Source: Paraspadella gotoi
Taxonomy: Eukaryota; Animalia; Chaetognatha
Length of the DNA stretch: 64,000 bases
Assembly: GCA_051294375.1 (NCBI GenBank)
Contig: CM119266.1
Span: 16,362,087 to 16,426,086 of the forward strand
Reading direction: 5' to 3'
In this document: piece after piece, positions 10,172 through 43,843 of the stretch
How positions within the stretch are numbered: position 1 is the stretch's first letter
Layout of the letters: each line of letters starts with the position of its first letter
Made by a program: the position numbers and the translations under genes
The notes under the pieces: model-generated
What the model saw: only the letters and a program-made list of their open reading frames with translations
The model's database searches: none
Told to the model about the DNA's origin: nothing

Positions 10172-10213
10172 ACGGACATGTTTCGACTCTTCATTTCGAG
10201 TCTTCATCAGCGT
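10172..10213 (-). ncRNA. Minimal hammerhead ribozyme (Penelope pLTR type)
   Basis: Sense: ACG CTGATGA A GACTC-GAAATGAA-GAGTC GAAAC AT GTC CGT. Intact core, 3-bp stem I and palindromic ACATGT stem III. Confidence 0.8.
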
Positions 10214-16586: not shown

Positions 16587-17741
16587 CATAATTTTTTGTT
16601 CATATTTAGTCAGTTAGTAATATTACTCAATTGCGGGTAAATAGGAGCGTCATTTTCGGTTATTTGATTATTCCAACAGTTTATTCTGATCTTTCAGATC
16701 ACTAAAGAAAAATTATAAAATGTAGAGGTAAAAAAATATTTATATTTATCTCCAGTCAAATGTGTCATTTTGGCTTTTCAGTACTTTACGACTTTAACGC
16801 TTTATTATCGTTTATTACAAAACCACTTTCTATATTCAAAATCTATTTATTCTAAAGGGGTTTCTCCTTTCAAGTAAATAAAATATCATTCCTCCGTTGT
16901 GTCCGTAGTTGCGATTTTATTTATCTTGTACAATTAAAAATGTACAAATTATTTTAATGCGGTCAACTACCATAATTAGTATACAATTTACGATGTAAAA
17001 TAAAAACCCAACGCGTAACCTGACGCACATTGTGAATCGCTTGCAATAAATTTCTTTACCTGAGCCTTATTACTAAATTCGCATGTTACTTTTTTATCTT
17101 CTTTAATGGAAATCTGTTCGTTACATAATTTAAACTGCATTGCATAGCCACAATACATAGATGATAGAATGAAAAAGTGAGTTGTATAAATTTGAGAATT
17201 AGTCGATGATCTTTTGTTGCTTTGTTAGTCTTCTCTATTTGCTCGCCAGAGACCGAGTAGCCATCCCCCTCTTTAGCCAGATAATTTAATGGAGACGCAA
17301 ATTAATGGTCGTCGATTGCGTCGCGACTTCGTTTCAAGTAAGACCTTGAAAATTAAACGCAACGTTACGCTCACCTTCCGCTTCTGCTGTACTGAGCCGA
17401 CCGCCCAACGAACAAATCTTCAGTCTAACCTAAGGGCCTTGAAGGCCTTGAAGGCCCTGGTTTTGAAGTCAAAGCGGAGCTTTATCTCGGTATTGAAAAG
17501 CCCTTAAATTTACCAAGTTGCTCTTTAGTAATTTATTGACTACAAAGCTTCCGGCGCCACCGCCTGTGTATTAACTTTTGAAATTTTGTTCTGTGGCTAT
17601 CAATAACTGGTGCATTTCAATAACATTTAAATGAGCAACCTTTGTAAAAAACTTACGAATTTTTTTAAACTGACTCTTTGTCTTAAGCTCTGATTGCTAA
17701 GAAACTTATCTGAAACTCCTGATTGTCGCTCAAACTGGGGC

Positions 17742-18920
17742 ATGGATCCGAAACTTGCGAAAAAGCTGTCTGACTACGGGGCAACATTCGTGTTCATGGA
17801 TTTTCCCACTGGCAGTGAATTTGGCGTGGATTGTTGCATGTGGACGGTCGGTCCAAAATTCAAAGGCGTAAAGATGATTCCTCCCGGTGTGCATTTCGTA
17901 TACTTCAGCGCGGTGAGCAGTTCCGAAGGCTTGGATGTTGGGCCACGAAACGGTTTCTTTCACGATTTCAAACCAGGCGAAATGATGGTACGGTTTTGGG
18001 ACCATCAACGCGAAACATTGAGCGATCGTCGTGCTTCTCAAGAAGATCTTAGTCGAATGAAGGCAGATAAAAATGGGCTGGATCCTTTTCTAGCTCCTTA
18101 CTCTTACGATCATCACAAAAAGTGGATTTCGTTGACGAATTATGCCACGGCAGAGCTGACGCAGAGATTAAGTCCAGTATCAGGCGTCGTTTCGAGCTTT
18201 TGTGAACTAGTAGCACTTGAAAAATTCGAGCAAAAAAACACTCACCGAAAAAATAAGATGCAGACTGACGCTGAGCAGATTTCGAAATCTTCTTCCAACG
18301 AAAAAGTAGTTGAACGCCCCCAACGAAACGACGAAGACACTTTACCAAAAATGTCGGCAGAATCGCAAATGCGTTTCCACGAAATCCCTAAAAACTTAAT
18401 TCCGCCGGGGGCATCCGCCTCTGAGGTAACGCGCTTTAGCCTAGATAAGACTCTTCTGCTCGATATCTTGCTGAAAAGCGATTTCGCTGAGCGGGAGTCA
18501 GATTTATTAGGAGAGCTGCAGCTGGCCTTCGTCGTTTTTATTTACGGCCGTGTTTACGATGGATTTGAACAGTGGAAGCGCCTCGTCCACTTGCTTTGCT
18601 GCGCCGCCAGTAGCGCCACCTCCCGCCTTCAACTTTTTAACGATTTTATCACCGTCCTATATTTTCAAATACAAGAAATTCCGGATGATTTTTTCGTTGA
18701 CATTATCACTTGCAGTAACTTCTTGACGTCGACGCTCTGCTCATTTTTCCAAAATCTTCTGTCTGAGGAATGCGATTCAGATCTGAAATTGAAGGCGGAA
18801 AAATTTCGAGCGTATTTGACGAAGCGGTTTAAATGGAACTTTGATGAGGACGACGTGGAAGACGAAAGACCAGTCGTAGTGGAGTTATCAGAAAAACAAA
18901 AGAAACTAATGGATTTGTAA
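17742..18920 (+). CDS. AAR2: AAR2 splicing factor (U5 snRNP assembly factor), intronless
   Basis: MDPKLAKKLSDYGATFVFMDFPTGSEFGVDCCMWTVGPKFKGVKMIPPGVHFVYFS...LLGELQLAFVVF...FEQWKRLVHLLC...EIPDDFFVDII...KFRAYLTKRFKWNF closely matches metazoan AAR2. Confidence 0.93.
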   Translation: MDPKLAKKLSDYGATFVFMDFPTGSEFGVDCCMWTVGPKFKGVKMIPPGVHFVYFSAVSSSEGLDVGPRNGFFHDFKPGEMMVRFWDHQRETLSDRRASQEDLSRMKADKNGLDPFLAPYSYDHHKKWISLTNYATAELTQRLSPVSGVVSSFCELVALEKFEQKNTHRKNKMQTDAEQISKSSSNEKVVERPQRNDEDTLPKMSAESQMRFHEIPKNLIPPGASASEVTRFSLDKTLLLDILLKSDFAERESDLLGELQLAFVVFIYGRVYDGFEQWKRLVHLLCCAASSATSRLQLFNDFITVLYFQIQEIPDDFFVDIITCSNFLTSTLCSFFQNLLSEECDSDLKLKAEKFRAYLTKRFKWNFDEDDVEDERPVVVELSEKQKKLMDL

Positions 18921-19114
18921 AGATTTAAGCCTGAAAATGAAGATGAAATGTTTTTTACGTACTCCACCTATTTGACGCGCGTTCTGTGCTTCGGCTATAC
19001 GTATATGTACAAATAATCTTCGTATTTTTGTTGATAAATTTTCCTACATTTTTATTTCCCGCAGTTTTTAACTCCTCTCTTAACTTCCCTCCCCCCCGCC
19101 TCCCGCCCTTAACG

Positions 19115-21852
19115 ATGCTGAGCGATGATTTTGAAAAAGGCCGAAATGGTGCCACCCCCAATGGCAACTTTGTTACCCCCGGAGTGGGAGGTGTTACTTC
19201 TGGCGGTGGCGGCTATGGATGCGTCACGACTAACAACGCGGGCGACGGACCCCCATCGTTTCACCGATGTCGACGAGGCGAGGGAGCACGCACGGAGTTG
19301 CGGGTGCTCATAAACACCAAAAACGCCGGGGCAATCATTGGGAAAGGAGGCACGAATATAAAAAGACTCAGAGAATCTTACAAATCCGGCGTCACCGTTC
19401 CAGGTCGTTTGCTTTAACAGATGATAACCATAAAATAGCTCGACTTATATTGTTCTTTTACATCAAGATTGCAGCGGACCAGAACGTATATTGACGATAA
19501 CCGCAGAATTGGGAACGGCTTTGGAGGTCCTGCTTGATATCATTCCCAGACTTGACGATTACAAAGACCGCGTTGACAACGACTTCGACGCCGAAGTCCG
19601 CATTTTGGTTCACCAGTCTCAAGTCGGACCCGTAATAGGACGAGCGGGTGGAAAAATCAAAGAGCTTCGAGACGTTACGGGTACTAATATCCGTGTCTAT
19701 TCCCAATGCTGTCCGATGTCAACGGACAGAGTTATTCAAATCACAGGTATGTATTCATTCCTAAACCTAAAAGTTATTCGGGCACGAAAAGTAGGATTAT
19801 TTTTACAATCGCCGACTAGGGTTAGAGTGGCTATGTTCAAGGGTGGCGAGGTTTGGGGGGGGAAGGGTTAAGGGTAGTTTGGTAAAAACTTTTATAATTT
19901 TTTTTAATATTAACATTTTTATAATAATAAATAATAATTTTGTTTTCACCGACTAGGGTAAAGGGGTGTTTAGGGTTAAGGGTAGTTTAAGGTTAAATTA
20001 AAGTTAATGGTAATTAGGGTTAAGGAGGGTTAAGGTAATTAGGTAATATTTTTTATTATTTTTTAATAACATTTTTTGTAATATTCAAAAAAGCTATAAT
20101 CCTAATCGGCGAAAGTAAAGTTGTACTTTTTATACCCTGTTACTAGTATACTCATAAGCGAACATCCGTGTCAGTGAATGTAATATTCTACATTTTCTGT
20201 AGTCTGTATTTTGATAATTAAAACGTAAAAATAAAAATTGTCACAGGTAAACCGGATCTGGTATGCGACACGATTCAGCAAGTCATCGAGATTGCCACCT
20301 CAGCTGGTATCAAAGGCGGAATACAACCCTATGACCCTTACAACTTTGACGATTTCAATGCCCCGGATTATGGCGGATTCGGCGACCCCCAGAACCCCAG
20401 TGTACGAGGCGGTGGCGGGCACATATCTGTTCCTCGCGGATTTGGAAGCAGACACGGTGGCAGTGGTGGCGCTCCCCCACCCTTTGGAGGTAGCGGGGGT
20501 CCCGGGGGGACGCGCGCCGGATCTCGCAGTGGTAGTGGCGTTGGAAACAACGACTGGAGTGCCCATCTCGATCCGACTTTCGCTGGCCAACCAAATACCT
20601 CAAGAAGCGAAGGAGAAAGAACAACTCAACAGGTACGAGGTATCCTCATCTCTTAGTTTCGTCAATAAAAACCTATTTTCTCTTAATCAAAGATTTGCAA
20701 AACATTTGTAAAAGAATTTTAAAATAAACGAAAGTTTTCGTGGAACAACAAGGAATTTTTATTTAAAAAAAAATCGGACATGTTTCGACTCGATTTGGAG
20801 TCTTCATCAGCGTTTGAAATCATAAATATTACGTCGGAGAAAGAGAGAGAAAAAAGAAAAGGAGAGTTTCAACAAAGAATTGAGTAAAGGATAGTGGTCA
20901 CTGGTCAGATGTGAGGACAGGTAAAGATGAGGACAGGGAAGGAGAGAGAGTGAGTGAATTTGAAACTGGTGAAAAAGAGGGGGAGAGAGAGAGAGAGAGA
21001 ACAAGAGAGAAATTAATACATTTGGTAATGTACAACAATGATAAATAAGAAAAACTTAATGAACAAAGATTAATAATTTAAAACATCTAATAATTTAAAA
21101 CAAAAAACAAAAAGAAAGGCTAAACACAATGTCTAAAAATTTTTAAGTTGATATAAAAAAGACCCATTTACTGCTATGAAAAAATAAACCATTAGGTAAT
21201 TGGTAAAATCAATATAATAGTTATCCCTTCATGCAATACTAGGCTACTACTAAACTACGTATTTTTTCTCGGAATCCTAACAAATGGTTTTTAATCTGTT
21301 TTCTATAGTGGTTAAAGCATAAAAGTCGATTAAGGTCAGGGGTAAGTTTTTAGGTCAGGTTTTTCTGTTATAACATTTTTTCATCAGTTATTCTTTAATT
21401 GATTGAACGATGAAATTGTTAAGTGTTACCAGTTCGACGATAGAGAATTTGTCTTCCATTTGATTGTACGATTGTACAACTCGCTTGCAATGAAACTTAC
21501 TATGAAATTACGAAGTTTTTGACGCGCAGTATTCGTTGAGAAACTTTGTTTTTTTGTTTTATAACAACAGGTATCGATCCCAAAAGATCTAGCAGGATCA
21601 ATCATTGGAACTCAAGGTCATCGCATCCGTGCCATACGCGCTCAATCGGGAGCGCAGATTATCATCGCCAGTGAAGTACAGCCCGGAAGCAACGACAGAA
21701 TTATTACCATCACAGGAACACAAGAACAAGTAAGATGTTTTACTAGTTATTTTTAAAAAAAAAGTTTCAACCTTTTCTTTGTTTTACAGATACAAAACGC
21801 TCAGTATCTCTTACAAATGAGTGTCCGTCAGCATTCTGGAAAATACAATTAG
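19115..21852 (+). CDS. HNRNPK: Heterogeneous nuclear ribonucleoprotein K (3 KH domains + RGG region)
   Basis: Exons 19115-19403, 19468-19746, 20247-20632, 21571-21729 and 21790-21852. Motifs [84 protein letters not shown] and [14 protein letters not shown]. Confidence 0.93.
20700..21060 (-). mobile_element. Solo Penelope pseudo-LTR in an hnRNP K intron
   Basis: Shares blocks (ATAGTGGTCA...GTGAGGACAGGT...ATGAGGACA; AATACATTT...ATGTACAACAA) and the hammerhead with the pLTR at 54973-55461. Boundaries are approximate. Confidence 0.6.
20775..20812 (-). ncRNA. Minimal hammerhead ribozyme (Penelope pLTR type)
   Basis: Sense: CG CTGATGA A GACTC-CAAATC-GAGTC GAAAC AT GTC CG. Confidence 0.78.
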
Positions 21853-24800
21853 TCATCTATATTATATCCGGCAAGATCCTACTTTAATCCTCCCTAACCT
21901 TGTTACGTGGCCCTTGACCAAAGCAACTAAGTTATTTAAACACTTTTCCTTTTTTCCCCTCCAACTTTCCACCCTTTTTAAATCTGGTCTCAAATTCCAA
22001 CCTATCCCTTTTTTGAGATTGTAATTTATGGGCATAATTAAAAAAAATCTGGATTTTTTCTCTTGTTATTTAGCAGCGATCTCTGTTTTATTGTCATCAT
22101 ATAAGGGGGTATTATCAACTTTTTTTTTTTTGAGAAATGGCTTAACCACGTTGATGGGTAGATTTTACTCCGATTATTTACAGTAAATTTTCAATTACTG
22201 TTATGACATTGGTTAATTGTATCAATTGTTATTTAGATTATTTAAGAATCCAAACTTTTTTACAAAAAACATCTCATCTTTGACTAGACTTAGTATAATA
22301 TTTACTGTTATATTATTTTTATTTCCATGAACTCATATATTACACCCTCCGTTTTTAGTCGACACTGTTTTCCATTTAACGTTACTTTTATATTGAACGT
22401 TTTTGATAGCGAGGTCTTGTTATTACTAATAGCCCCATTAGGGCGCTCGATTACAACTCGACTCTCTGTCTTAGCTCCGTTTCCATTTTTTCAGCGCGCG
22501 GCCCATTACCTTCTTACTTTTGTACCACTCAATTCCGCCCACCTTTCTCCAAATTCTCGTCGTTGCCACTCCCCTGATGTTACTCTTCGGCAATGTTGCC
22601 GTTTTTCTTCGCGCACCGTCTCTTATTCATTATTTACTCAAAATGTTCCAAACTGTAGTAAGACGTGTAAGACTTTTTTCAATGTTATTGGCGCGAGATC
22701 AAACTTTTCCCACCGCTTTCCCTCTTTTTCCTCCCCGACAAATGAAGAAACTACGCAGCCCGCTGTGAATTCACGTGAAATCATCATATTAGAACCTACC
22801 CCACATCTGCCCACCTTTTTAGTCCCATACCCGTAAAAATAGATCTTCGTAAAATAATCCAATATTTTTCTGTACGTCGAATGCTGTTTATGAAAAATTC
22901 CTCCCCCATTTTTCTCAGTCGCATTTACGTTCAATTATTGACGTTTGATGCCTATATATTGTTCGTAACCAATCTCATCGGTGCACGTTTATGACAACTT
23001 TAAAAGCTTAATATTTTACGTAACCTATGTTAGGCTTAGAATAATAAATTTAAAAGAATTACATTTTAATCAAGGAATATTTTTTTAAAGTTTAAAAGGA
23101 CTCTTCAATTCTACAAATTATTTTTTATGCATCTATTTTGGTCTTAAAGGCGAGTTCTGTTGTCCCCCAATTACTTATAACGATCATAATTACAATGATG
23201 TAAAGCTTTTAGAGGCTATAATAAAGGATTTTTTTAATAATCTTATAATTTATTTACCAAATATTAAAGAAACAAATGTTTTCAATTTATTTTTAATCTT
23301 AATTAGTAAGTTCCAGATTAAAAATACTTAATTTTTAAGGCAACCCTAAGTAGCCATAGCCGATGAAATTTAAACACTAATGTATACAGCGTTAAAATAA
23401 TCTATCATGAGCATAGATTATAGTATTAAAAAATGCTTTCTTCTGAGGGTACTCGCCTAATTAAAATTATTATATTACTATATAAAGAAAAAAAATTTTT
23501 GGATAGATTCTGATAGAGCATAAATAAGCATAAGTTAAACAAGAAATATTATTATAGCTTTTAAAAATTCTTACATTTTTAGACAACTTTTAATGAGCTA
23601 TCTGAATCTGGTCTTAAAATTTAAAATTTTTACAAAAAATTTCGGCCTTTCCTATTTATAAATAAATATTAAAAAACTAATTATTATGGTATAAAGCTAT
23701 ATAAGAAATTTTTTGTCCATTGTAAGTATACTTAAAAATGTATAAATTTTTTTTTGAGCATGTACTCGCTCTAAATTTTTGACTAGTCCCATTGAGTGCG
23801 GCTACCCTTACCTTAAGTAGTTCGATCTGAAAAATTTAGTATTTTTTTAACATATTTTAAATGTATCAAACTATTTATATAAATTTTATGTTTAAGCCGT
23901 TAAAACCAGCAATAACTGTTCTTTCATAAATATTCGGACTAATCGTTTTCATTAATTTATTCAATAGACTTTTAATAAATTTTGTTGATTAAAAAAATAT
24001 TTTAAGGATGGATGTTTTAATTTGACCGCCATTTTTTTAAATATAGTGATATTGATAACATAAATTCATAAAATGTATGAAATATAGGTAAACAATTTAA
24101 ACATTTTTGAAATCGACAACAGTTTTCATTTTTTGATCCCAGCCTCATTTTGTTCTATTTCCAGGTTGTTTTCTATTTAATCCTTTAAAAAAAAATTGTC
24201 ATTCTATTAAAGTAACTTAACCGAATAAAAATGAAAATAGTGAAAGTCGGCTTGACTTACCTGGAGCCACATGCCTACATCTGGATCATATACTGATAAA
24301 ACAATATCAGTGATATAGACAAAGACTGAGAGGTATGAAACAGAAGAAAATCTAGCAGGATTCATATTAGAAAATGATACATCATTTTTTCGAGCTTAGA
24401 ATCGGTTCTGGAATAACTACTGGACCCAATAGGTTAAAATTTTGATTTTATCCTTAAGAGAATATTAATAAAACTATCGAGGCGAATTTCAATATTTGAC
24501 TACTAAGCCGAGATATGGGTCCCAATAGGGGTCACGCACAAGGGCGAAAAAAGGTCAATTTTTTTTTTAATTTTCATAAACGTCAGCGGTTTATGCCAGA
24601 TTTGGAAAAATGAAAAAAATTGAAGTAAAATGATAAACCATGCATCTTCAATCAAGTTATCGTTTATTTAACAAAAATATAATTCACTTTGTCGGTCCGT
24701 CGGTCCGCCCCCTCAATATTGTCGGGCACACACTTATATCATGTCAGAACATCGAATTATGATAAATTATTTAAAAAAAAACGATGTCCGTCCGTCCGTC

Positions 24801-25369
24801 CGTCCGTCCGTCCCACCTTAGCAAAAAACTCCAATTACTCGTGATTGGATGGATGGATTGGTATGAAATTTTGTGTGTGGGTAGGAAACTGTGTGATTGA
24901 GATGGATATGAAGTTTCGAGGGAATCGTGCGAGTGGAAATTGGTTTAAATGGAAAAAACAAAAAAAATATATTTCACTATTTGATCGCCAATTGCTCATG
25001 AGTGGATAGGGCAATTGACTTGAAATTTTGTATGATGTAGGAAAGTGTGTGATTGAGCTGGATATAAAGTTTCGATGGAATCGTGCGAGTGGAAATGAGT
25101 TAAAATGGAAAAAACAAAAGTCATATTTACTTGAAGTATTTTTACTTATATTTACTCATAATTATTATGTCTATTAAAAATTGGATAGATAAATCGAAAT
25201 TGAATTTTGTGGTGTGGGTAGGAAAGTATGTGATAAAGCTGGATATAAATTTTTAGATGGAATCGTAAGAGTGGAAAAGAGTTCAAATTAGAAAACCAAA
25301 AGACACATTTATTTGAATTTTTTAAAGTTTCTCTCTCTCTCTATCTCTCTCTGATTGATTGATTGATTG

Positions 25370-25648
25370 ATTGACCAAATTATGCAAATTGACAAAAATA
25401 TGCCAGTTGACCAAATTCTTAAAGTTGACCAAATTATGCCAATTGACAAAATTCTGCAAGTTGACCAAATTATGCCTGTTGACCAAATTATGCCTGTTGA
25501 CCAAATTATGCCAGTTGACCTAATTAGGCAGTTGAAAAAATTATGCCAGTTGACCAAATTATCTTAATTGATCAAATTATGTCAGTTGACCAAATTATGT
25601 CAGTTAACCAAATTATGCAAGTTGATTAAATTATGCAAGTTGACCAAG
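25370..25648. repeat. 18-bp minisatellite (GTTGACCAAATTATGCCA)n inside the HINE
   Basis: About 15 tandem imperfect copies, which generate the spurious VDQIMP-repeat ORFs. Confidence 0.9.
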
Positions 25649-26484
25649 TTAGCTTATTACCACTTAATTATCGATTGACCTAGAATTTTGTATGTGAGTA
25701 GAAAAGTGTGTGATTGAACAGGAAACCAAGTTTCGATGGAATCTTTTGAGTGGAAATGAGTTTAAGTGGAAAAAACAAAAGTCGAATTTACTAAAATATT
25801 TATTTATTTTATTTTAACCAATAAGTACTCTAATTAATCATAATTGGATGGATAGATTGAGTTCAAATTGTTTGTGTTGGTAGAAAAATGTGTAACGATG
25901 CTTGATATAAAGTTTCGGTGGAAACGTACGAGTGGAAATGAGTTTAAATTAAAAAAATATGAGTCACATTTACTTGAATCTTTTTACTTATTTTAACCCA
26001 TAATAGATTGAGATGAAATTTTGTGAGCGGGTAGAGAGTGAGTTAGAGAGAGAGAGAGCAGAAAAATGAGCATTAAGGATCGACTCGCCAATTGCAAAGA
26101 GATGAGAGAGAAGAGAGCAGAAAAAGGAGCATAATGATCGTCGCAATTGCAAAGAGAGAGAGAGAGCAGAAAAATGAGCATAAGGATCGTTGCAATTGCA
26201 GAGAGAGAGAGAAAGAGAGAGAGTCCGAGATTAAAATTAGCAAATAAAAAAGTTATTTTACTCACTGAATAAAAATACTTAAAATACTTACAAAATACAT
26301 AAAATTGATAAAATTATTATTCCGATAACATTGTTTAATCACATGCAATATATCTAGTAAGGCGGGCCAAAATTGAACATTTTTTATAACTTCTAGTTCT
26401 CTTTAAAAATTTTTTTTTCCTTTACTACTAAATCAATTTTCAATGTAACTTTTTGAATTAGTTCAATCCCCGGGTATCCCGGTT

Positions 26485-26562
26485 CTGGCTTAATGTGACG
26501 GTGCCGTATAAACATGCCAGTGACAGGAGAGAGTCACTGAGGGTCCGCAGCCCCTACGCCAG
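26485..26562 (+). ncRNA. P5-type twister ribozyme, family A (predicted cleavage 26509/26510)
   Basis: CTGGC TTA ATGT GA CGGT GCCGT A T^AA ACAT GCC AGTGAC-loop-GTCACT G AGG GTCCGCAGCC CCT AC GCCAG. P5, P2, P3, P4 and both pseudoknots (CCG/CGG; GC/GC) are present. Confidence 0.8.
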
Positions 26563-26617
26563 TTGGTGAGATACCCCCGCGCCCGGGTATCACAGGCTAT
26601 CCTCCCGTTGCCATAAG

Positions 26618-26650
26618 TGGTGAGCCCTACTATCGAACACGCAACCTTCT
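26618..26650 (+). promoter_or_regulatory. Extended primer-binding site complementary to the 3' half of a tRNA-Trp-like tRNA
   Basis: The reverse complement is AGAAGGTTGCGTGTTCGATAGTAGGGCTCACCA, versus eukaryotic tRNA-Trp ...AGAAGGTTGCGTGTTCRAATCACGTCGGGGTCACCA (recalled). It starts 2 nt after the LTR end. Also present at 27559-27587 (-) and 39984-40016 (-). Confidence 0.75.
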
Positions 26651-26899
26651 CAGGGTACGCTACGACAAACGCCTATGCCCTGCCACTTCGGGTACGCTCG
26701 ACAAACGCCTATGCCCCTGGGTACGCTATGACAAACGCCTATGCCCCACGACTCGCGCTCTCTCTCTCTCTCTCCCACTATGGTAACAGTCTTGTCAGAC
26801 ACCTCTCAGGCTTGAGGAACCTGAGTGATGTCTTGGCCGGGGATCCTGTGGCGGTATATTCACACCGCCTCACGTCCACCATCCTTCAGCCAAATCCAT

Positions 26900-26942
26900 T
26901 GGCTCAGAGGGAACACACCATCCCAAGTGTAGTGTTCCATCC
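26900..26942 (+). promoter_or_regulatory. Pol III-like A box / variant B box in the family-B LTR
   Basis: TGGCTCAGAGG (26900-26910) and GTTCCATCC (26934-26942) lie directly upstream of the twister. The B box is non-canonical and the spacing is short. Confidence 0.45.
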
Positions 26943-26966
26943 ACAGTCCTAACGACTTCCCTCTGC

Positions 26967-27046
26967 GTTGGCAAAGCGAGACCGTCCTAGGGTAACCGCG
27001 CCAGTACTGGAGGCGTCACTGAGGGTCGGAAGCCCCCAAAGCCAAC
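26967..27046 (+). ncRNA. P5-type twister ribozyme, family B (predicted cleavage 26993/26994)
   Basis: GTTGGC AAA GCGA GA CCGT CCTAGG G T^AA CCGC GCC AGT(G)AC-TGGAGGC-GTCACT G AGG GTCGGAAGCC CCC AAA GCCAAC. The CGG/CCG pseudoknot is compensatory relative to family A. Confidence 0.82.
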
Positions 27047-27161
27047 TGAGATGCCCCATCCCAATGGGCATCACAGGCAACCCGGCTGTTGCCATAAGCC
27101 ATAAGCCACTTATGGCAACGGGAGGATAGCCTGTGTACCCGGGCGCGGGGTATCTCACCAA

Positions 27162-27240
27162 CTGGCGTAGGGCTGCGGACCCTCAGTGACCGCCTCCTGT
27201 CACTGGCATGTTTATACCGGCACCGTCACATTTAAGCCAG
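27162..27240 (-). ncRNA. P5-type twister ribozyme, family A, in the 3' LTR of E2 (cleavage 27214/27213)
   Basis: Sense: CTGGC TTAA ATGT GA CGGT GCCGGT A T^AA ACAT GCC AGTGAC..GTCACT GAGGGTCCGCAGCCCT AC GCCAG. One C short in the P4 C-run. Confidence 0.78.
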
Positions 27241-27642
27241 AACCGGGATACCCGGGGATTGAACCCGGGACGCACGGATGGAATGATATGATTTAGCCTG
27301 CTCAGCAATTGAGACGAGGCTGAGGACGGACAGCAGTGAGGCAGCTTTAAGTCTTGCTGCCACAGGATCCCCCCACCAGACTTCTCCCACAGGGGCCTCA
27401 ATCCTGAGGAGATGTCTGAGAGAAGGTTTTGATCTCATTGCCATATGTGAGAGCGACAGGCGGCCAGCGAGCGAGCGAGTCTGGAGCGTTACCAAGAAGT
27501 AGGGCATAAGCGTGATATGCATACCCTAAGCGACGTAAGCGTGGGGCACGGTGCGCACGGTTGCGTGTTCGAGAGTAGGGCTCACCACTTATGGCAACGG
27601 GAGGATAGCCTGTGATACCCGGGGCGCGGGGTATCTCACCAA

Positions 27643-27719
27643 CTGGCGTAGGGCTGCGGAACCTCAGTGACCGCCTCTGTCACTGGCATGTTATACCGGC
27701 ACCGTCACGTTTAAGCCAG
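27643..27719 (-). ncRNA. P5-type twister ribozyme, family A, in the 5' LTR of E2 (a few lesions)
   Basis: Same motif 479 nt upstream of the previous copy, with a one-A deletion and substitutions in P2 and L4. Confidence 0.68.
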
Positions 27720-27734
27720 AACCGGGATACCCGG

Positions 27735-27787
27735 GGATTGAACCCGGGACGCACGGATGGAATGAGATGATTTAGCCTGCTCAGCAA
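27735..27787 (-). promoter_or_regulatory. Pol III-like A box and B box in the family-A LTR
   Basis: Sense TTGCTGAGCAGG (27787-27776) and GGTTCAATCC (27744-27735), the latter within a T-arm-like hairpin CCGGG-TTCAATC-CCCGG. The boxes are 31 nt apart, just upstream of the twister. Confidence 0.6.
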
Positions 27788-28503
27788 TTGAGACGAGGCT
27801 GAGGACGGACAGCAGTGAGGCAGCTTTAAGTCTTGCTGCCACAATATAATAAATTATATAAAGTTTTGACAGAATTGTGCCAGTGGAAATGAGTTTAGAT
27901 GGAAAAAACATAAGTACATTTACTTGAATCTTTAATATTAATGATTACTAATAAATGTTTTAATTAATTAATTAATTAATTAATGTGAAAAAATGATGCA
28001 AGTTAAAAGAATCTTAAAAGCATAAAGATCGTCGCAATTGCATAAAAAGAGAGAGAGAGAGAGAGTGAGAGAGAGAGAGAAGGAGAAATAAAAAAAATAG
28101 AGGATATTGTTTGTTTTGATAAAATGTAAACAAAACATATTTAATAACTGTCCTAACCCAATTTTTAGGACATCGATGATGATAAGTTGAATATAAATTT
28201 AAAAAATTAATATACATATTAAAATTAATTCATTAATTAATCGATTAATTAATTAATTAATTATCGTAGGCAGATCCGACATTGTTTGCTCAAACTTGTT
28301 TTATTACATAAATGTTTATTAATATAATGTTGTTCGTTCCTCACTTTTAGAATTTTAATTAAAGTTAAATTTAGAAATTTTACTACGCCTTAGTAAAGAT
28401 ACCTTAAAAGTTTTTATCGTTTTTAGTTTCACGAGTGAAAAACTAAAGAAGTGGATCAAAATCTGAAAAAAATGAATCAAATTTGGGATTCTGCTTCGTA
28501 ATC

Positions 28504-29468: not shown

Positions 29469-29695
29469 AATAGCAATAGCCGTGTTGCCTGTGATTCCCA
29501 TTGGGATGGGGCATCTCATTGTTGGCTTCGGGGGCTTCCGACACTCAGTGACGCATCCATTCACTTGCGCGGTTACCCTAGGACGGTCTCGCTTTGCCAA
29601 CGCCGAGGGATGTCGTTAGGACTGTGGATGGAACGAAACTCCTGGGATGGTGCGTTCCCCCTCTGGACGTGAGGCAGTGTGAATATACCGCCACA
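29469..29695 (-). mobile_element. Solo LTR of the family-B twister retrozyme-like element (E3)
   Basis: Starts at the same TGTGGCGG terminus (29695) and ends at a degenerate GCTATT. An internal deletion removes part of the A-box region. Contains a mutated twister at 29521-29601. Confidence 0.75.
29521..29601 (-). ncRNA. Degenerate family-B twister ribozyme
   Basis: GTTGGC AAA GCGA GA CCGT CCTAGG G TAA CCGC GCA ... GAGTGTCGGAAGCCCC..GCCAAC, with two core substitutions. Confidence 0.6.
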
Positions 29696-30567: not shown

Positions 30568-30809
30568 TGTTATCGGGCATTGCCTAAGTTCACCCCGCCT
30601 ATAAGCATGTGACCCGGTGGCTCATGGAATAAAGCCATCAGCTCATGACCACTAGGTACCGGGTTCAATCCCAACCCGGTATATACCCTGCGGGAAGCGT
30701 GAGGACGGCCGTAAACCACCTTTGGGGCGTGTAAAACCCACTCGCCTGGTTCCAAGCCCAGGACCCGTTCAATGGCTGCTAGAGGGGGTTAAAGAAATTG
30801 CGGATAGCA
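30568..30809 (+). mobile_element. Solo-LTR-like element 'family C' (242 bp): 5' hairpin, tRNA-like A/B boxes, twister-like motif
   Basis: Termini TGTTATC...GATAGCA. The tRNA-like segment 30611-30680 contains TGGCTCATGG and GGTTCAATCC. Homologous to the 33261-33502 copy, including sequence upstream of the tRNA head. No TSD seen. Confidence 0.55.
30690..30768 (+). ncRNA. Degenerate P5-type twister ribozyme-like motif
   Basis: GCGGG AA GCGT GA GGAC GGCC G T^AA ACC ACC ..TGGG-loop-CCCA.. G CCTG GTTCCAAGCC CAGG A CCCGT. Canonical L4 and a TCC/GGA pseudoknot; the conserved GCC reads ACC. Confidence 0.55.
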
Positions 30810-31362
30810 CTCTTCACAAAAATATTATGCCCATTAGCACCCTAGACCATACAGATACATTCATATTTTTTGAGTGTAAAGTTGAAGAAAAAATGTTTAA
30901 TTTTTGTTCCGCAGTATCTTACCCTGTCGTCTTCCAAGAAAAAAACTTCCGGCGGCGATTTGCCTCGGGAATTATTTGGTGATTCATCGTTATATATCGT
31001 TATCTTATATGATATTTGATGCGTGATACTAATACGTAATCAATGCGACGTTTTCGACTTTCGATGTTATTTAATTGTATTGAAGTTGATCTCATGTTAT
31101 GTGATGTTATTGTTTTCTGACAGTTAATATTTTTCATGAAAACACGAGTTGCAGACTCATCCCAGAAATGCAATTACTAAACTAAGTACACTTTCGTTTT
31201 CTTTTCTCTGGTACAATTTTTTTTTTACTTTTCGGTAAATTTTATTTGACTAAGCGGAAGCGGTACTTATGACTCTAATTTACCGAAAGTTAACGACAAC
31301 TCTTTGATTGAAACTTAGATGCGGCGAAACTGACGAGGCTTGGAATTTTTAGTTTAACCAAA

Positions 31363-34300
31363 ATGTATTTGGGGCCCGGTCACAACGATCTGCCCCCCGG
31401 TTACTCCTCCCGTTATTCTCCGCCACCACTCGAACTACGGGCTCCTCCCCCGCCCGGTCCGCCTCCTTGCGCTCAAGAAGGGGCTCCCCTTGTTTATGAT
31501 TACAGCCACGGCGGGGAGGGACATCGTAACTCGCACGGTCGAATCCCTCGGCCCTCTAGTCCTCACTCGAGAGGGTCCTTCTCAGAATATTCAGACCGCC
31601 ACCAGGTTCATGATAGTTTCGATCGACGACTCGACCGGGCCGCTCTTCCTCCGCGACGGCCTAGATCCCCTGCGTACGAATACGCCCCTTCACCGTCTCG
31701 ACCACCACACGACGATTTTCCTTCTAGAGTAGCCAATATTAACGTTCAACATCGAAATCGCGGGCCTCCTCTCGCAACGCATGACGATCGTCGGGGTCAA
31801 CTTTCTCCTCGACGACGAATTCCTTCGCCTTCTGAATTGTATGGACCCCCGGAAACGCCTGGTCGCTACTATACGCCCTCCACAAAGGGCACACATTATG
31901 CTCATGTAAGACGAGGCTCTCCGTCTGCTCGAAGAGCGTCGCCTCCGAGGCATCGAGATTATCTCCCACTCCGCGACACCATTGACCATTTGGATGCTCG
32001 ACCGTCGACGCGACTACCGCCGCCTCCAAGTTACGAGCCGGACCGATCCCCTGCGCCAAGGCGGATCTCTCCGGCCCCGCCACGTGATTACTGTACGCCA
32101 AGACCGAAGGAGGGCAATTCTCTTTCAAAACACGAGTCTCCTTTGCCTCCTTACCGTAGAGTCAGCCCATCTTCCCCGTTTCAAGAGCCACCAGTTCGTA
32201 GAGCGTCCCCGCCACAGGCCTACAAGGATCCTGGCCCCCACTCTCCACCCCCTTCTCGACCGGGTCGTCGACTCACGCCGTCCCCATACCGATCACCGTC
32301 GCCGGAAAGAGAAGCCTTTGTTGGCCACGTCCTCGCCGAAGGCCGACGATCTAGGTCACGCGATCGTAATCTGACACAGTTTCGCGATGGCTACCGAGAT
32401 TCCAACGAGAGAATTCCGGAACAATTTCGGGATGACTACCGCGCTGCAGCGACGTCCAAGATGCCAACCCCACCTCGGTCCATGAAACACAGTAAGGCTC
32501 CTCGTAGTCCGAGCGGCAGCCCCTTTGAGGATACGTTGCGCAATTACCGAACCGAAAGAAAGGTCGCAGCTCCTATGCCAATGAAACGACCTCGTTCTCT
32601 CTCGCGAGAGCACAGCGTCGACAATTTCGCCGATTATCCTAAAGGAATTTGCAAGGAGTGGTTCGATACTGGAATCTGCCGCAAGCCCATTGGTGGCTGT
32701 TTTTTAGCCCACTCACTGCCGGAAAGTCCGCGTTCTAAACATAGAAGGAAAAAGCAGGTTTCGCGCGAGAGAGAGGGTGGAGTTGGATCGGCCGAAGGCG
32801 CAAGGCGGGGGGATAAAAAGACGGCCATTTACAATTATGACAATGAAGAGACTCCACGTGAGGAGGAACATGATGTCATGCACAGAGATCGACGGCGAGC
32901 TGACGTCGAAAAAAGGGAAGTCGATAAAAAGCTCTGTCGGGAGTGGGCCGTCGGAGCTTGTGATAACCCTGATAAAAAGTGCAAACGAAGGTAAGCGATC
33001 TCTCGTTCTTTTAACTAAGTTTTTCCTTTTTCCTAACACTGATTACTTTCTAGGCTTTGGAAAAAGTCAATTTATTTTTTTTTTTTTTTTTTGATTGTTT
33101 AAAAGTAAAAATAAATGAAACTTCAAAGAGAACACAGTTGGGTAATTAAACTATTTTCTTTGACCAAGCACGAACAAAAGGATTTTTCTTCCGATTACTA
33201 TAAATTACTTTGGTCCACGTTCGTAAATATTAACGGAAAATAATTTTTTCCAGAAACGGATGCAACTGCCGCAGCTGCGCCTCGCAAACGCTCTGATTTC
33301 GTTTGGGGTTGCTGCTTTTTTTCCAGTTCAGATTTTCTTCACTTTTGTTCCGATCGGACTCAGGCTTCCCTTAGGGGATGTACCGGGTTAAGATTAAACG
33401 CGGGATCTTGTGATCATAAGCTGATGGCTTTACTCGACTAGCCACTGGTTCTGAAATTGCAAGGTCTATTGGTGGGGTGAATCTGAGCAATGACCTCGTA
33501 CAATTCATTTTTCACGTTCCTTTCCATTTTTATTTCGTTTGACCTTGATCGTCCTTCCTTTCCTTCTCACTTTCCTCCATTCTCACTTTTTTGTTTTTAT
33601 TAGTTGGGACCTAAGTAGCAACTCGAAGCAACTCTATAATCTATATTATACTTCAGTGTCTATCGGGGTTTTTGCCTGTTTGTCAGTCTGTCCTATATGG
33701 GTATAATTTAATTTATATAGACGGAGTTATTTGGATTAATACTTAACTCTGATAGGGGCTGTACGATAAGACCCTTCTTGTACAATTTACATGTTTCATA
33801 ATTGAATAATCTCACGAATCAACAATTCATGAGTCGGGCCGCGAATGTTTTATTTTTTGCCTGTCACGTTTCTTTTTCTCTACAGCAGGCTTCATTTTAT
33901 AAAATGAGGTACCCCTTTTTTGTGACCAGAACACGTTCCGAGAAAACTACTGAATAAATTTTAATGAAAATTGTTATGAACGATCCCTATGTGAATACAA
34001 ATAGAACTATCGAGGCGAATTCCTATATTTGACCCCTAGGGGCCGATAGGGGAAAAAAATGTTAAATTTTTTTTCTTTTGAACAGTTGCACAGTCGTTTA
34101 CTTTTCCACAAAAACTTATTTATTACCACAAAAATATTAATTTACCAAGTTTCATCTTTATGAACATCATCGGTTCAAGTCAGAGTTGGAATAATTCGGG
34201 AAAATTGGGAGAAAAACGAACCATTCATCTTCAAACAAACGCAGCAAAAAATTTTTCAATTTTAGTTTTAAAAAAGATTTTTACATGTTTTAGACGTCGA

Positions 34301-37300: not shown

Positions 37301-40300
37301 TCATTTTTTTGGCAGTTATGAAGGTTTTGTTTGTAATGGTTATTATGGTTTTTGTAATTGTGGTTGTTGTGATCGTTCTAAAGTTCTAATTAGGTGTAAA
37401 AAAAAAAATTAAAATTTGGTAAAAATGCTTAAAATTAAATGTTAACCGGTCATATACATTTTGTACAATTAGGCTTTGTGACTGTGTGTCCCTTTGCCAT
37501 TTTCAAGTTTAAAAAATTAATTATCTTTTTCTTTTCTTTTCTTTTCTTTATACTTTCTTACAAGTTAATTCAGAACTGTTTTAAAGGTCATTTTTTGTGG
37601 TGGTGTTACCGATCTCAGCCGTTTCCAAATCCAAAGAACCATACAAATTTTAAATTAAATTCAGATTTAAATAAAAGAAAGGAGGTGAAGGAAGGCAACC
37701 GAATTAGGGGAGAAAAATTCTAAAAATAACAGGAGGAAATTTATCGTACTTGAATTCATGAATTTAGAGATTCAAAAATAAAAAATATCAATTTTCATAT
37801 CCGTTAATTTTAAAAAATTAATATTAAAATTAATTAATTAGTATTACTTATTAATTAATATTAATTATCAATATTATCAATCAATTCGAGATTATCCTTT
37901 CGTTTCAGTGTGTGAAATCAGTCAATTAGAATTATTTTTCATCGATGATTAACCGTTAACTTTTAAGCGGTTAAAAGGCCTACTTCTAATGGTTGTGGTC
38001 ATTATCGTGGTTGTTTGTCTGTTGTCTCAGTTATTTCAGTTATGGTCGTTCTGGTGGTTTTGGTGATTGTCGTTTTTAATATAATGGTTTTGATTATTAT
38101 TGTTATGATAGTTGTTGTGGTTCGTGGTTATGAGTATTGTTGTTTTGATTATAAATGTTAGTATGGTTTTAATTTGTGGTTGTTATCGTTGTTATGGCTT
38201 AATAGTAATTGTTATTTATTTGTTTGTGGATGTAGTTCTGGTTGTTGATGATTTAGTATTTATTGTTGTTGCAGCGTTTTTTATACATTTTATATGAAAC
38301 AGGATAAAATGAAAAATTTCATTTTAAAAAATATCTCGTGTTTTTCCTTTTAAAATCACTTCCACTTGCCCGATTCCGTCAAAATTTTATTTCGAATTAC
38401 TAGAAATATGGTAACAAATCCTTTTTTTTTTTTTGGCTACACCCGTAGATGGTTTCTGCTTTAGTTGTAACTTTTATTTTTACTATAAACAATGCGTATT
38501 TTCCGTATTTTTCCCCGCGTTTTTTTTTTTTTCGATCTAATTTTCTGCGAGTTGAACGATTCTTTTTTTAAACGAAATTTTCGATTATTTTCGTCGTAAT
38601 TTGGGAATTCTTAAACAAAAAAAACTCATATCACTTGATCGTTTTGATTCTATTTATGGTTATGCCTTATTGATATTAAGCTTTTTTTAATTGTTAAATC
38701 AGTAATTACTAGTTCGTTCTTTTCTTCTATGATCATTTTTATCAATCTCCTCGTCTGAGTGGGTAACATTATTTTCCAGTTTTTTAAATGGTGTAGTAAT
38801 TTTCCTATGACATTCTCGATGGTCCTTGACTTAATCCCCAAGTTACTATTTGTTTATTCCTCACGGATTCTTAAGGTGCATTAGAGGAGCATTATGTTTG
38901 AATCATTCCAGCCATAAACGCTAGGAAAAAGTTTTCGTTAAGGCAAGGGTGCTGGCAATTTATAATAATCGGATCTTTTTAACCCTTTTCCTTTGCTGTA
39001 GGTTTTCAGTCGTTGTTTTTATTACAAAATTCAATTCGTCCTCTTCATTCACTATCAATTTTGTTTTAGCTGACTTTTTCTTTCTATTCACTTTACTATA
39101 TCTCCATATTTATAATCAACTACTAAAATATTTTACTCTATCGGGCAACTGAGTCATTTTAGATAATACTTAGCCGGAATCATTAAATGATCATTGTGCT
39201 CATGTTTCATACTAAACTCATGTAGTCATGTGACAACATAGAAATGCGATCATGTAAAGAGAAAACCAATGCTACTTATTTTATGTAACGGTTGGTTATT
39301 TTAGTTAATATTAGTAATATTATAATATTGTATTATTTTTTCTCTCTTTTCGTTGCTAAGTGAATATTAGGAAATGTTTATTAATGTGCCAATACAACGA
39401 TTTTATTATTAATAGTACATGTTTCGACTCTGCTGGTTCGAGTCCTCATCAGCAGAGTCAAAACATGTACTATTAATAATAAAATCGTTGTATTGGAACA
39501 TCAATAAACATTTCCTAATATAATATATTATAATATAATAATATTATAATTATGGCACAACAGCCGGTGCTTGGCCCATGTGGGATATGCTACTGTTGGC
39601 TTTGGGGCTTCGGACCTCAGTGACGCCTCCAGTCACTGGCGCGTTACCCTAGGACGGTCTCGCTTTGCCAACGCAGAAGGAAGTCGTTAGGACTAGGATG
39701 GACACTACGCCTGGGATGGTGTGTTCCCCCTCTGAGCCAATGGATTTGGCTGACGGATGGTGGACGTGAGGCGGTGTAAATATACCGCCACAGGATCCCC
39801 GGGCCAAGACATCACTCAGGTTCCTCAAGCCTGAGAGGTGTCTGACAAGACTTACCATAGTGGGAGAGAGAGAGAGCGCGAGTTGTGGGGCATAGGCGTT
39901 TGTCGTAGCCTACCCCAGGGCATAGGCGTTTGTCGTAGCGTACCCGAAGTCGGCAGGGCATAGCGTTTGTCGAGCGTACCCTGAGAAGGTTGCGTGTTCG
40001 ATAGTAGGGCTCACCACTATGGCAACAGCCGGGTTGCCTGTGATGCCCATTGGGATGGGGCATCTCACTGTTGGTTTGGGGGGTTCCGACCCTCAGTGAC
40101 GCCTCCAGTCACTGGCGCGGTTACCCTAGAGGACGGTCTCGGTTTGCCAACGCAGAAGGAGTCTTAGACTATGGATGGAACACTACGCCTGGGATGGTGT
40201 GTTCCCCTAGGGTGTGCCAAAAATTTCAAAATCATAATAGCTCAATTTACATCCGGCACAATATGTGGGGGCATAAAGAAGTATGTTTGCCCAAATCTCA

Positions 40301-43300
40301 TCGAATTTGCTTCAACACCCTTAGCACTACCCTCGCTTAAAGGATTTTTGGCACACCTTTGACTAAAAAATTAATTGTTTAAAAAATATGACTTGTTTAT
40401 CCGTCCACTCAACTTTATTAGCTGAGGAAATCATCAAAGATTATTTCACATCAATTTGAAGTGCTCTTCTCATCCACAGCCTTCACAACTGGCTCCACAG
40501 CATGCTGGAGGATGTGGAGTTGATAACATCATTGCTTATAATTCCTAACCATTCAGGGTAGAATCTTTTACTTTGACATAGTTTCACAACTAATATGTTC
40601 CTTTATATAAATCAACAACATTTGATTTTATTTAGTGGTGTGGTTACATCCTGGAGGATACTTTCTGTACCTTTTTTTATTTTTCATAAAATTGCTATTT
40701 TAAATTACATTTTTAGATTATTTATATTACAGGCTGATGTAAGATGATAAATGGGTCAGATCTAAAAAAATTGCATGAATTAAGCCTAGGTTTCAAGAGA
40801 GCCTCTCTTGAAGGATTGGGAGCACACTCAACACCCCCTTTAATGAGTAAAGATACCTTATTTTTTTAAAATATTAAATGCTTGTTTGGTTAAAATTTTA
40901 TGACCAAAATTTATACTTCAAGTTTTGATACACCTAATACCATTAAAAACTAGAGAAGATTTTAAATACTGCATTATGCAAAATGGATTTTGGTATCTTA
41001 TTTGCTTCACTAGAGAATCGTTGGAGAACAATAACAAAAGGGGGACAAATGTACGAATGTATTTGAAAAAATCTTATTTAAATTAACCGGAAGATCTTAT
41101 AACTCCGACAATGACGACAACAACGACAACAGAGGATTTACTGAATTTTGGTGAAAGGAATCTTTGTGACTAAGGTCATGTAAATGACTGAGGTCAATTC
41201 AAGTCATCTGAGTAAAATAATTATTAAACGCATAACTTATCAAAGAATAATTTTAATTTAAGACATTTTTAGCACAATATATATATAAATATTTATAATA
41301 ACATTAAATGAATTAATATGATTAGTTCAAATAAAATTCACAAAGGAAAATAGCAACAGCAACCACAGAGACAATTAATAATTGAACATCTACAAAGTAT
41401 ACAAATTATTGGATATAGTCAAGTAAATAAGAATAAGGCAAAAAAATGGAAAAAGAGGACAACAATAGCAATAATAAAAAAAATATATAACAATACAACA
41501 ATTTGTATTAAATTATTAGAATTTAAAGTTGTTAAGTTTCAAGGGAAATAATATTGTGTGAAACTGTGAATGCTTTCTTTCTTTGAGTTGTTAATTAGTT
41601 TGAGAGAAGACATTTTGTTTTGTGTTAAAAAACAACGATTTTTAAAATAGAAACAAATAATGTACATGTTGAGACTTATTCAGCGCGAATTAAATGATTT
41701 TCAAAATTTGTTTTTAATGTGGAAAAGAGAGGGAAGGAGAGAGAGAGGGGGGGGGTTTCTAACAAAGAATTTGAAAAACGACAGTGATTGTTATTATAGT
41801 TTTGTCATGTTTGTTTCTGTTTGTTACTAAAAATTATTTATAATGTTTTTTCATGAAAGTATTGAAGATGCTGAATACAGTCCGACTTTTCGTCTTCTCC
41901 TTCCGGATCTGCTTACAGCAGATTTCGGCTCTATAATTCAGTTTGTCGGTCCGTCGGTCCGCCCCCCCAATCTTGTCGGGCATTCACTTATATCATGTCA
42001 GAACATCGAATTATGATAAATTATGAGTAGCCATTGTATTATTCCTTTCTTTTCGTTGAGTTTAGAGATTTAGAAAAAAAGTTTGAAATTTTTGTTTCAT
42101 CAATTAAATTCGTTGATGAAACAAAAATTTCAAACTTTTTTTTCTAGATAAATTATGAAAAAAAATTAATGTCCGTCCGTCTGTCTGTCCATCTGTCTGT
42201 CCGTCTGTCCATCCATCCCACCTTAGCAACAAAAAAAAACCAATTCCTCGTGATTTGATGGATGGAGTGGATTGAAATTTTGTGTGTGGGTAGGAAAGTG
42301 TGTGATTAAGCTGGAAATCAGGTTTCGATGGAATCGTCCAAGTGGAAATGAGTTAAAATGGAAAAAACGAAAAAATATATTTCACTATTTGAACGCCAAT
42401 TACTCAAGAGTGAATGTGGTGATTGACTTCAAATTTTGGGCGAAATGCTCTTCGATGCCCCCTTGCCGTATGACGGAGCAGCGAATCTCTCTCGCTCGCT
42501 CTCTCTCTCTTTGGCTGATTGACTCAGAGTCAGGATCTGGATCAACAAAAACGACAACGAAAATTTGAACGATGGATTAATTGTTTAGGGTTTCGGTTAG
42601 GGATAAGGTTAGTTTAGGTGATAGATATTAGGGATTAGGATTGGGATTAGGGTTAGGGATTAGGGTTGGGATTAGGGTTAGGGATTAGGGTAGTTTTTTC
42701 CTACGCTACTTTTGCAACAATAAAATTCTGGCTTGCTGGGTGAAAGAAAGAGAGAAAGAATTAAGCCTCCGTCAGGATCGGGATAGACAGAAACAACGAA
42801 GATAATTTGAACGATGGAGGAAGCAGTTGCGACGGTGAGAGTGACGACTAAAGGAGTGACGCATAAAACAACGATGGAAGTAGCAAAAGATCTGATTTTT
42901 GTGCGTGTGTCCGAGTCCGCTGCTTCAGGCGTACCAAATTTGGTCACAAGTTATGTGGGTAGGAAAGTGTGTGTTTGAGCAGGAAATAAAGTTTCGATGG
43001 AATCGTCCAAGTAAAAATGGAAAAAAAAATCAATCTATTTCACTATTTGATTATGCTTTTTTTATATTGAATTTAAATTAAAGCTGCATTTAATAAGTGA
43101 GTAATAAATAAATAAGTAATTAATTAATTATTAATTATTTGTAATTATTAATTAATTAATTTTGTGATCGAGATTGTTGTTTTGTGATTGAGAGGCGAGA
43201 CAAAGTGAAAAACGATTTTGACACGAATTAAAAAAAATATTATTAATTATCTAATGAATGTGGGCATTGTTTGCTCAAACTTATTTCTAATAATTGAGCT

Positions 43301-43800: not shown

Positions 43801-43843
<43 letters not shown>

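Follow-up and report, generated by a model that had tools for sequence, protein, structure and literature searches.

Long terminal repeat (LTR) retrozymes have been described from plants and with hammerhead ribozymes, and the animal retrozymes described so far are devoid of LTRs, of any primer-binding site (PBS) and of any polypurine tract (PPT). According to the available parts of the original account (Cervera, Urbina and de la Pena 2016, PMC4918200), the plant elements are non-coding, contain a ribozyme in both LTRs, a PBS, a PPT and a 4-bp target-site duplication (TSD), lose the R repeat by a double cut and have been proposed to use a Ty3/Gypsy helper; a type III hammerhead, a tRNA-Met PBS and demonstrated circles of 600-1000 nt are their own. 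The animal non-LTR retrozymes with their dimeric minimal hammerheads, as presented in the available text of PMC7229834, are small non-coding elements with a weak palindromic-loop helix that works as a dimer, and they form tandem repeats. Here, a 64,000-nt stretch of the chaetognath Paraspadella gotoi (NCBI GenBank assembly GCA_051294375.1, contig CM119266.1, positions 16,362,087 to 16,426,086 of the forward strand), referred to below as the window, was found to contain short non-coding LTR elements that display a type-P5 twister fold in their LTRs. The explanation that we favour, with a probability of roughly 0.6, is that these are miniature terminal-repeat retrotransposons (TRIMs) that have tRNA-type promoter boxes ahead of the twister in their LTRs, and that they are likely transcribed by RNA polymerase III (Pol III), cut by the twister to a unit of about 480 nt and mobilised by a Gypsy element of the CsRn1 clade. 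The established part of this explanation comprises the layout, the helices with their compensatory changes, the tRNA-Trp PBS, the TGT..ATA ends and the many copies with a fixed left end. In comparison with the plant retrozymes, the elements contain a type-P5 twister and a tRNA-Trp PBS, have a cut-site spacing of 477-484 nt, reside in an animal and possess Pol III boxes, whereas circles are only predicted.

Seven LTR copies belonging to two families, A and B, that are 64% identical were detected in the window by self-BLAST and alignment (Table 1). The family-A element E2 is complete and comprises 733 nt, with two 254-nt LTRs sharing 97.3% identity in the alignment, the termini TGTGGC..GCCATA and a 225-nt middle that opens with the PBS and closes with GGTGGGGGGATCC. 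The element E4 has the same order of LTR, PBS, non-coding middle, G-tract and LTR but belongs to family B, and its 5' LTR is interrupted by a 4,594-bp inverted-repeat element (40208-44801) with a 9-bp duplication. This insertion is DNA transposon-like, with terminal inverted repeats of more than 500 nt starting with TAGGG and with nested repeats inside. The hybrid element E1, of whose LTR-A only the 3' part is present, adjoins E2 tail-to-tail. The longest ATG open reading frames (ORFs) across the elements encode 74-96 amino acids and none exceeds 96. The initial annotation of this DNA had proposed the layout of E2 and E4, a solo LTR and predicted cut sites 484, 479 and 477 nt apart in successive LTRs; its coordinates and layout hold in self-BLAST and alignment, the spacings are exact, and the solo LTR is real: 33 nt are deleted from it, its right end is degenerate and a TSD is absent.

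The circularly permuted twister that had been assigned to each LTR was recovered as a fold in 7/7 copies. In the alignment of the seven LTRs, 91% of the 180 cells of the named structure are paired, compared with 26-39% in slid controls. Five pairs, two of them in P2 and one each in P5, T1 and P1, are altered on both sides between families A and B, in agreement with the compensatory changes noted previously; the covariation cells are not independent and represent about five events, because only two related lineages are available. The pseudoknot T1, with both-sided change, is paired in 20/21 cells and shows three different sequences over families A to D, and T2 is paired in 12/13 cells. Unaided, RNAalifold recovers P5, T1 and P3. 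The stems P2, P4 and P5 are present in the P5 permutation, with one mismatch each in P2 and P4 of family B; the conserved L1/L4 bases (U^AA, the catalytic G, and the G-C and U.A pairs closing L4) are present in both families, the catalytic G and A+1 are kept in all seven copies, and family A contains a C at the A.A pair. A strict descriptor of the fold matched three of the seven LTR copies and produced no match in 4.1 Mb of shuffled sequence. The elements share with the type-P5 twister (RF02684; described in part in PMC5408937) the order P2'-GA-T1'-P1-UAA-P2-GC-P4-L4, both pseudoknots and the catalytic G and A, but differ by a loop-less palindromic P1 of 6-8 nt, a 7-bp P3 in families A and B and a score far below the gathering cut-off; the Rfam Twister-P5 model has a long P1 and no P3, unlike these families. 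The available text of PMC11662667 reports that a short P1, C.A in P2, A.C in P4 and A-to-C at the A.A pair are tolerated in natural twisters, the large-scale test in question covering type-P1 twisters only. Some of the flaws fall in homopolymers where most contigs differ; because several are placed in this way, decay and assembly error cannot be distinguished for them. The twister is very probably active in young copies. Reading the fold as type-P1, with the P1 strand placed downstream, was rejected because T1 would stay unpaired. A motif scan of the window revealed no hammerhead core inside the elements, and a pattern scan of viral and metagenome contigs for the P3/L4 motif gave no match.

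Two further units, assigned to families C and D, have the appearance of solo LTRs with TG..CA ends and comprise 207 and 242 nt, respectively, with boxes A and B 44 nt apart ahead of the twister in both. Family C was detected as an eighth, weak match (4874-4949) by a model built on families A and B, and family D as a ninth match near 30746 by a relaxed descriptor. Since the relaxed descriptor yields about one false match per shuffled window, both families rest on a joint test of box A, box B and L4 (0/20 shuffled windows). Family D scored 19.7 bits (E 0.037) with the Rfam Twister-P5 model, below the cut-off of 37.6 and with the same topology, and family C gave no tRNA or twister match in Rfam. 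The catalytic G is missing from C, and P2 and T2 are broken in D. These units may be solo LTRs or SINE-like units, that is, resembling short interspersed nuclear elements. A truncated second family-D head (33349-33451, minus strand, 78% identical) contains a further palindrome, CGATCG, at the P1 position; it directly precedes the break and could have arisen from the breakpoint.

P1, the segment that separates T1' from U-1, is self-complementary in 4/4 families (UGCCGGUA, UCCUAGGG, GGCGCU and CGGCCG). The palindromes comprise 6-8 nt, differ in sequence from family to family and are too short for a hairpin: at most 2 bp can form within one strand and no hairpin is predicted, and full pairing is possible in trans only, as a self-duplex in which two copies form 6-8 bp (-8.3 to -11 kcal/mol). 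The central pair, which is impossible within one strand, is altered on both sides between A and B. If the families are taken as independent, which does not hold fully for A and B, four palindromes would arise by chance with a probability between 0.004, counting the central pair only, and 2e-5, counting the central four. Family D was found without any P1 condition and family C by a model scoring a 2-bp P1; the Rfam alignment gives the P1 of family D a loop of zero nucleotides. Dimeric hammerheads with palindromic loops provide a precedent (PMC7229834). From these modelled pairings we lean, with some caution, towards the interpretation of the palindromic P1 as the shared helix of a dimeric 'double twister'. 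A natural dimeric twister was not found in the literature searched, which was mainly open-access.

Upstream of the twister, the LTRs contain tRNA-type Pol III boxes. Box B of LTR-A is perfect, and the single mismatch in box A of E2 concerns the second letter (27307), which is G in 99% of the contig depth of DNA run X1 and in 95% of that of run X9. Family B has a perfect box A at 26900 (E1), at the same distance from the twister as in LTR-A. The boxes are 43-44 nt apart in families A, C and D, and box A precedes the catalytic G by 79-83 nt in 4/4 families. Moreover, TTT runs are absent from the sense strands of the A and B units, compared with 7.8 expected (P 5e-5 in mononucleotide and 0.015 in dinucleotide shuffles), and none of 34 control windows is free of TTT. 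To judge from these signals, the elements are probably transcribed by Pol III.

The boxes and the missing T-runs would tie the element to the Helenus TRIMs, or TRIMp3 (Kojima 2024, PMC10886601, available in part), which are likewise below 1 kb in length and have LTRs with tRNA-derived A and B boxes, and whose animal members also share the 4-bp TSD and a Gypsy-like PBS including that for tRNA-Trp. The available text of that paper reports no ribozyme in Helenus elements, which end in TG..CA instead of TGT..ATA, and most of the listed Helenus LTRs show by eye a T-run right after the tRNA-like part, unlike the elements described here. No twister was recognised in the Helenus consensus LTRs, which were inspected in part by eye and with five motif strings throughout the supplement. 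In two wasp LTRs of that collection with a tRNA-Trp PBS, Helenus-2_SyJa-LTR and Helenus-2_SyUm-LTR, inspection by eye reveals a type III hammerhead core behind box B, its loops being complementary, and no T-run at this place; the available text does not mention this hammerhead, and both are possible unrecognised animal LTR retrozymes. PMC7761336 (available in part) refers to unpublished studies of twisters in RTE elements and of type III hammerheads in insect elements. An LTR element with twisters was not found in the mainly open-access literature searched, in line with the initial annotation, to which the combination was likewise unfamiliar. The definition of a retrozyme given in PMC4918200 requires a hammerhead in the LTRs, whereas the elements carry a twister fold instead; they would work like an LTR retrozyme but are best filed as Helenus-type TRIMs with a twister and not as hammerhead-defined retrozymes.

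With respect to mobilisation, the PBS adjoins the 5' LTR in 3/3 middles. The middle opens with TGGTGAGCCC, and after a gap of 3 nt a further 12 (A) or 16 (B) letters match, by eye, the antisense oligo of human tRNA-Trp given in 10.1101/400127. Elements of the CsRn1 clade of Ty3/Gypsy such as PwRn1 and AgCR combine a tRNA-Trp PBS of the form TGGTGA(G/C)CCC with TGT..ATA or TGT..AAA ends and a 4-bp TSD (PMC2582038); they are autonomous, 4-6 kb in size and encode gag-pol, and no ribozyme is reported in the available text. All three CsRn1 marks match the elements of the window, the TSD being taken from one copy. On these sequence marks a Gypsy helper can be assumed with considerable confidence, and its membership of the CsRn1 clade is fairly probable. 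In DNA run X1, 10,343 contigs fell on the 1.5-kb element stretch, and 110 of them depart exactly at 26847, the start of LTR-B, into unlike flanks, the majority of which end in ATAT; no fixed right end was seen among the rows listed. The summed X1 depth exceeds that of single-copy genes by a factor of about a thousand or more, which denotes many copies without being a count. The family is thus high-copy with a fixed left end. Runs X10 and X13 from two other organisms contain near-identical element pieces at low depth, X10 without single-copy genes, and are not taken as independent evidence. Searches with the extended-PBS pattern gave no viral match and nine metagenome loci, all attributable to chance and lacking an LTR or tRNA, and PBS-derived 16-18-mers gave 17 viral loci, none of them a tRNA.

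E1 changes from family A to family B inside the shared PBS, which is the trace expected of an inter-molecular second strand transfer; ectopic recombination also fits. At the joint between E1 and E2 (27085-27115), a 7-nt duplication is present, and both 3' LTRs extend into the first letters of the PBS. We infer that this run-on reflects unprocessed cDNA ends or multimers, the alternative being an assembly chimera.

The proposed life cycle would start with Pol III initiating near box A of the 5' LTR and continuing through the 3' LTR; since the polymerase would meet no T-run and read through the 3' LTR, the transcript would hold both twisters, which would cut it to the unit of about 480 nt. The two twisters may pair with each other through their palindromic P1 segments; the common helix would then be flanked by two active sites, one per end, in the manner of dimeric minimal hammerheads, and such dimerisation would therefore favour cutting in two-LTR transcripts and disfavour it in the released unit. 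Because the released unit would lack a terminal repeat for the first strand transfer, it would have to be circularised: in the least certain step, a host ligase would close it and tRNA-Trp would prime reverse transcription, as proposed for plant retrozymes, and a CsRn1-clade Gypsy element would copy and insert it. The odds that the RNA unit is circular appear even. Of the first interpretation, the animal non-coding LTR element with a type-P5 twister in each LTR and a likely Gypsy helper has stood, and cleavage, monomer release and circularisation stay predictions; the assignment of the PBS to tRNA-Trp, the marks of the CsRn1 clade, the Pol III boxes, the palindromic P1 and families C and D go beyond it.

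Several observations weigh against the explanation of the elements as twister-cut, Pol III-transcribed TRIMs. Self-cleavage is a prediction from fold and sequence. At the gathering level of Rfam, RF02684 and RF03160 had no match in the window. The covariance-model hit that the initial annotation had called for was obtained only in part, because families A and B did not match the Rfam P5 model: E1 gave a sub-threshold twister-P1 score (17.1 bits, E 0.18), and the E2 3' LTR gave neither a twister nor a tRNA, its T-arm hairpin alone matching EBER1 (E 3.1). Two intact twisters of the same family are not combined in any element of the window, with three of the seven copies passing the strict descriptor, and one of three family-A copies is without one base of the P1 palindrome. 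The dimer may be unneeded, because deleting P1 from twisters caused no loss of cleavage according to the available text of PMC5408937. Families C and D are decayed, without TSD or middle, and could be SINE-like, and a clean box B was not found in the family B LTR. The annotated TSD of E4 is present as ATTA/ATTA (TAAT on the plus strand) but is the sole one, and is weak evidence owing to the AT-rich surrounding DNA; the annotated G-rich tract is likewise present in the layout, but as a PPT it is short, with 5-7 purines followed by TCC. The circular units fold moderately, with 58-63% of bases paired and z values of -1.5 to -2.9 (60 shuffles). Finally, run X9, identified as RNA because the hnRNP K gene shows four GT..AG joints in it, contains both families A and B at an X9/X1 depth ratio of about 0.004-0.07, compared with 0.012-0.024 for introns and similar to other repeats, and therefore gives no sign of abundant element RNA. 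Cut or circular RNA would be missing from a poly(A) library, and the X9 contigs reveal neither RNA ends, circles nor strand. A joint in X9 that goes back 482 nt was rejected as a circle, as it reflects LTR-LTR identity. Families A and B have two long-range helices in common, with different sequences, which are uninformative on circle versus linear RNA.

The alternative that survives best, which we nevertheless consider unlikely, regards the elements as ordinary Helenus-type TRIMs in which an active monomeric twister only trims the ends, the RNA being linear or derived from tandem or read-through transcripts, with neither a circle nor an obligate dimer. The dispensability of P1 and the lack of enrichment of element RNA in X9 would agree with it, as would the tandem arrays known for one Helenus family (PMC10886601) together with the continuation of the E2 3' LTR into PBS letters. 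A further parallel is Perere-3 with its T-variant twisters (PMC8501958, available in part), in which a twister is likewise tied to an animal retroelement and trims its 5' end without circles; these are type-P1 twisters making a single cut in a non-LTR RTE element. Such end-trimming is at odds with four different palindromes whose central pair is unable to form in one molecule, and the twister of the 3' LTR would also cut, thereby removing the terminal repeat.

It is improbable that the twister is a passenger, in the sense that a tRNA-headed, twister-bearing SINE or a Penelope-type piece entered the ancestral LTR and was kept for its promoter, with the ribozyme now irrelevant to the TRIM. A SINE insertion was proposed as the origin of Helenus by Kojima (PMC10886601), families C and D resemble free head-plus-twister units and are catalytically damaged, and four of the seven A/B copies fail the strict descriptor. 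Yet, at 64% identity, A and B have kept all helices, both pseudoknots and the catalytic bases via compensatory changes, and few core variants occur among the top rows listed from thousands of contigs. Palindromic dimer signals are a feature of retroelements, and the P1 palindrome could act as a packaging or dimerisation signal outside the catalytic fold, two RNAs being present per Gypsy particle; pairing in trans is required equally by the double-twister model, and E1 suggests that two RNAs were co-packaged. Its position exactly at P1 in 4/4 families and the combination in E1 of two families whose palindromes hardly pair with each other (-2.0 kcal/mol) make this very improbable. An assembly artefact or chance fold, suggested by the many homopolymer indels and by an inverted E1/E2 joint that may be an amplification chimera (no bridging contig was among the rows listed), is refuted for the elements themselves, the joint excepted, by seven copies in two families that are both present in independent runs and by the absence of descriptor matches in the 4.1 Mb of shuffles.

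Table 1. Positions of the LTR elements and their predicted components in the window
Feature	Positions	Strand	Details
E2, full family-A element	27111-27843	-	LTR 27590-27843; middle 27365-27589; LTR 27111-27364
E2, boxes A and B in 5' LTR	27787/27744	-	same arrangement as in 3' LTR
E2, twister fold in 5' LTR, imperfect copy	27643-27719	-	predicted cut 27693/27692
PBS, complementary to tRNA-Trp 3' end, on into T arm	27559-27587	-	29 nt common to A and B
Short G-rich, PPT-like tract before 3' LTR	27365-27377	-	also pairs with LTR segment behind the twister
E2, tRNA-type Pol III boxes in 3' LTR	27255-27308	-	box A 27308-27297; box B 27265-27255 in T-arm hairpin; 43 nt apart
E2, type-P5 twister fold in 3' LTR, family A	27162-27240	-	predicted cut 27214/27213; P1 palindrome 27222-27215
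E1, hybrid element	26461-27096	+	5'-truncated LTR-A 26461-26615; middle-B 26616-26846; LTR-B 26847-27096
E1, twister fold, family A, every helix paired	26485-26562	+	predicted cut 26509/26510; twister-P1 17.1 bits
E1, twister fold, family B	26967-27046	+	predicted cut 26993/26994; P1 palindrome 26985-26992
Solo LTR-B, decayed	29469-29695	-	twister fold 29521-29601
E4, family-B element, ATTA duplication	39551-44873	-	imperfect twister folds at 39595-39672 and 40070-40151
Family C, solo LTR-like unit, TG..CA	4848-5054	-	box A 5015; box B 4971; decayed type-P5 twister ~4875-4948; P1 palindrome 4931-4926
Family D, unit resembling a solo LTR, with TG..CA ends and terminal inverted repeat	30568-30809	+	box A 30618; box B 30662
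Family D, decayed type-P5 twister	30691-30767	+	P1 palindrome 30706-30711

The surroundings of the elements include five hammerhead cores of the minimal type, whose helix III is the palindrome ACATGT, at 10210(-), 20810(-), 39452(-), 49610(-) and 57356(+), all of which were missed at the Rfam gathering level and one of which adjoins a Penelope-like element. The latter (55161-57234) is enclosed in long inverted repeats and contains ORF fragments that by eye resemble a Penelope reverse transcriptase and a GIY-YIG endonuclease; a Pfam search assigned these fragments to no family. An intronless AAR2 gene, whose best named relatives are from animals (43-46%), is followed close by by the spliced hnRNP K gene (17694-23406). 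Long proline-rich ORFs with Cys/His-rich repeats, zinc-finger-like by eye and without a Pfam match, are located at 31312-32994, 45720-46982 and 48276-49100. Additionally, a dispersed repeat family with GTCC microsatellites, presumably similar to Helentron/DINE elements, occurs at 24660-26010, 41900-43100, 57950-58590 and 61760-62030.

If the explanation given here is true, the design of the plant LTR retrozymes would be extended to another kingdom and to another ribozyme class by an animal TRIM that has a twister in both LTRs, and it would represent a second role of twisters beyond the 5' trimming of RTE elements, with a candidate helper clade named. A twister that naturally depends on dimerisation would be a novelty in ribozyme biochemistry and could offer a route to non-recutting circles for circular-RNA expression. 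More tentatively, at odds well short of even, the elements may belong to an animal LTR retrozyme superfamily with Pol III promoters, an obligate dimeric 'double twister' and a circularised 480-nt RNA; it would be represented in this genome by at least four families and have an overlooked parallel in the hammerhead-bearing Helenus elements of wasps. In that case LTR retrozymes would not be plant-specific, their ribozyme class would be interchangeable, and twisters would work as natural strand-swapped dimers.

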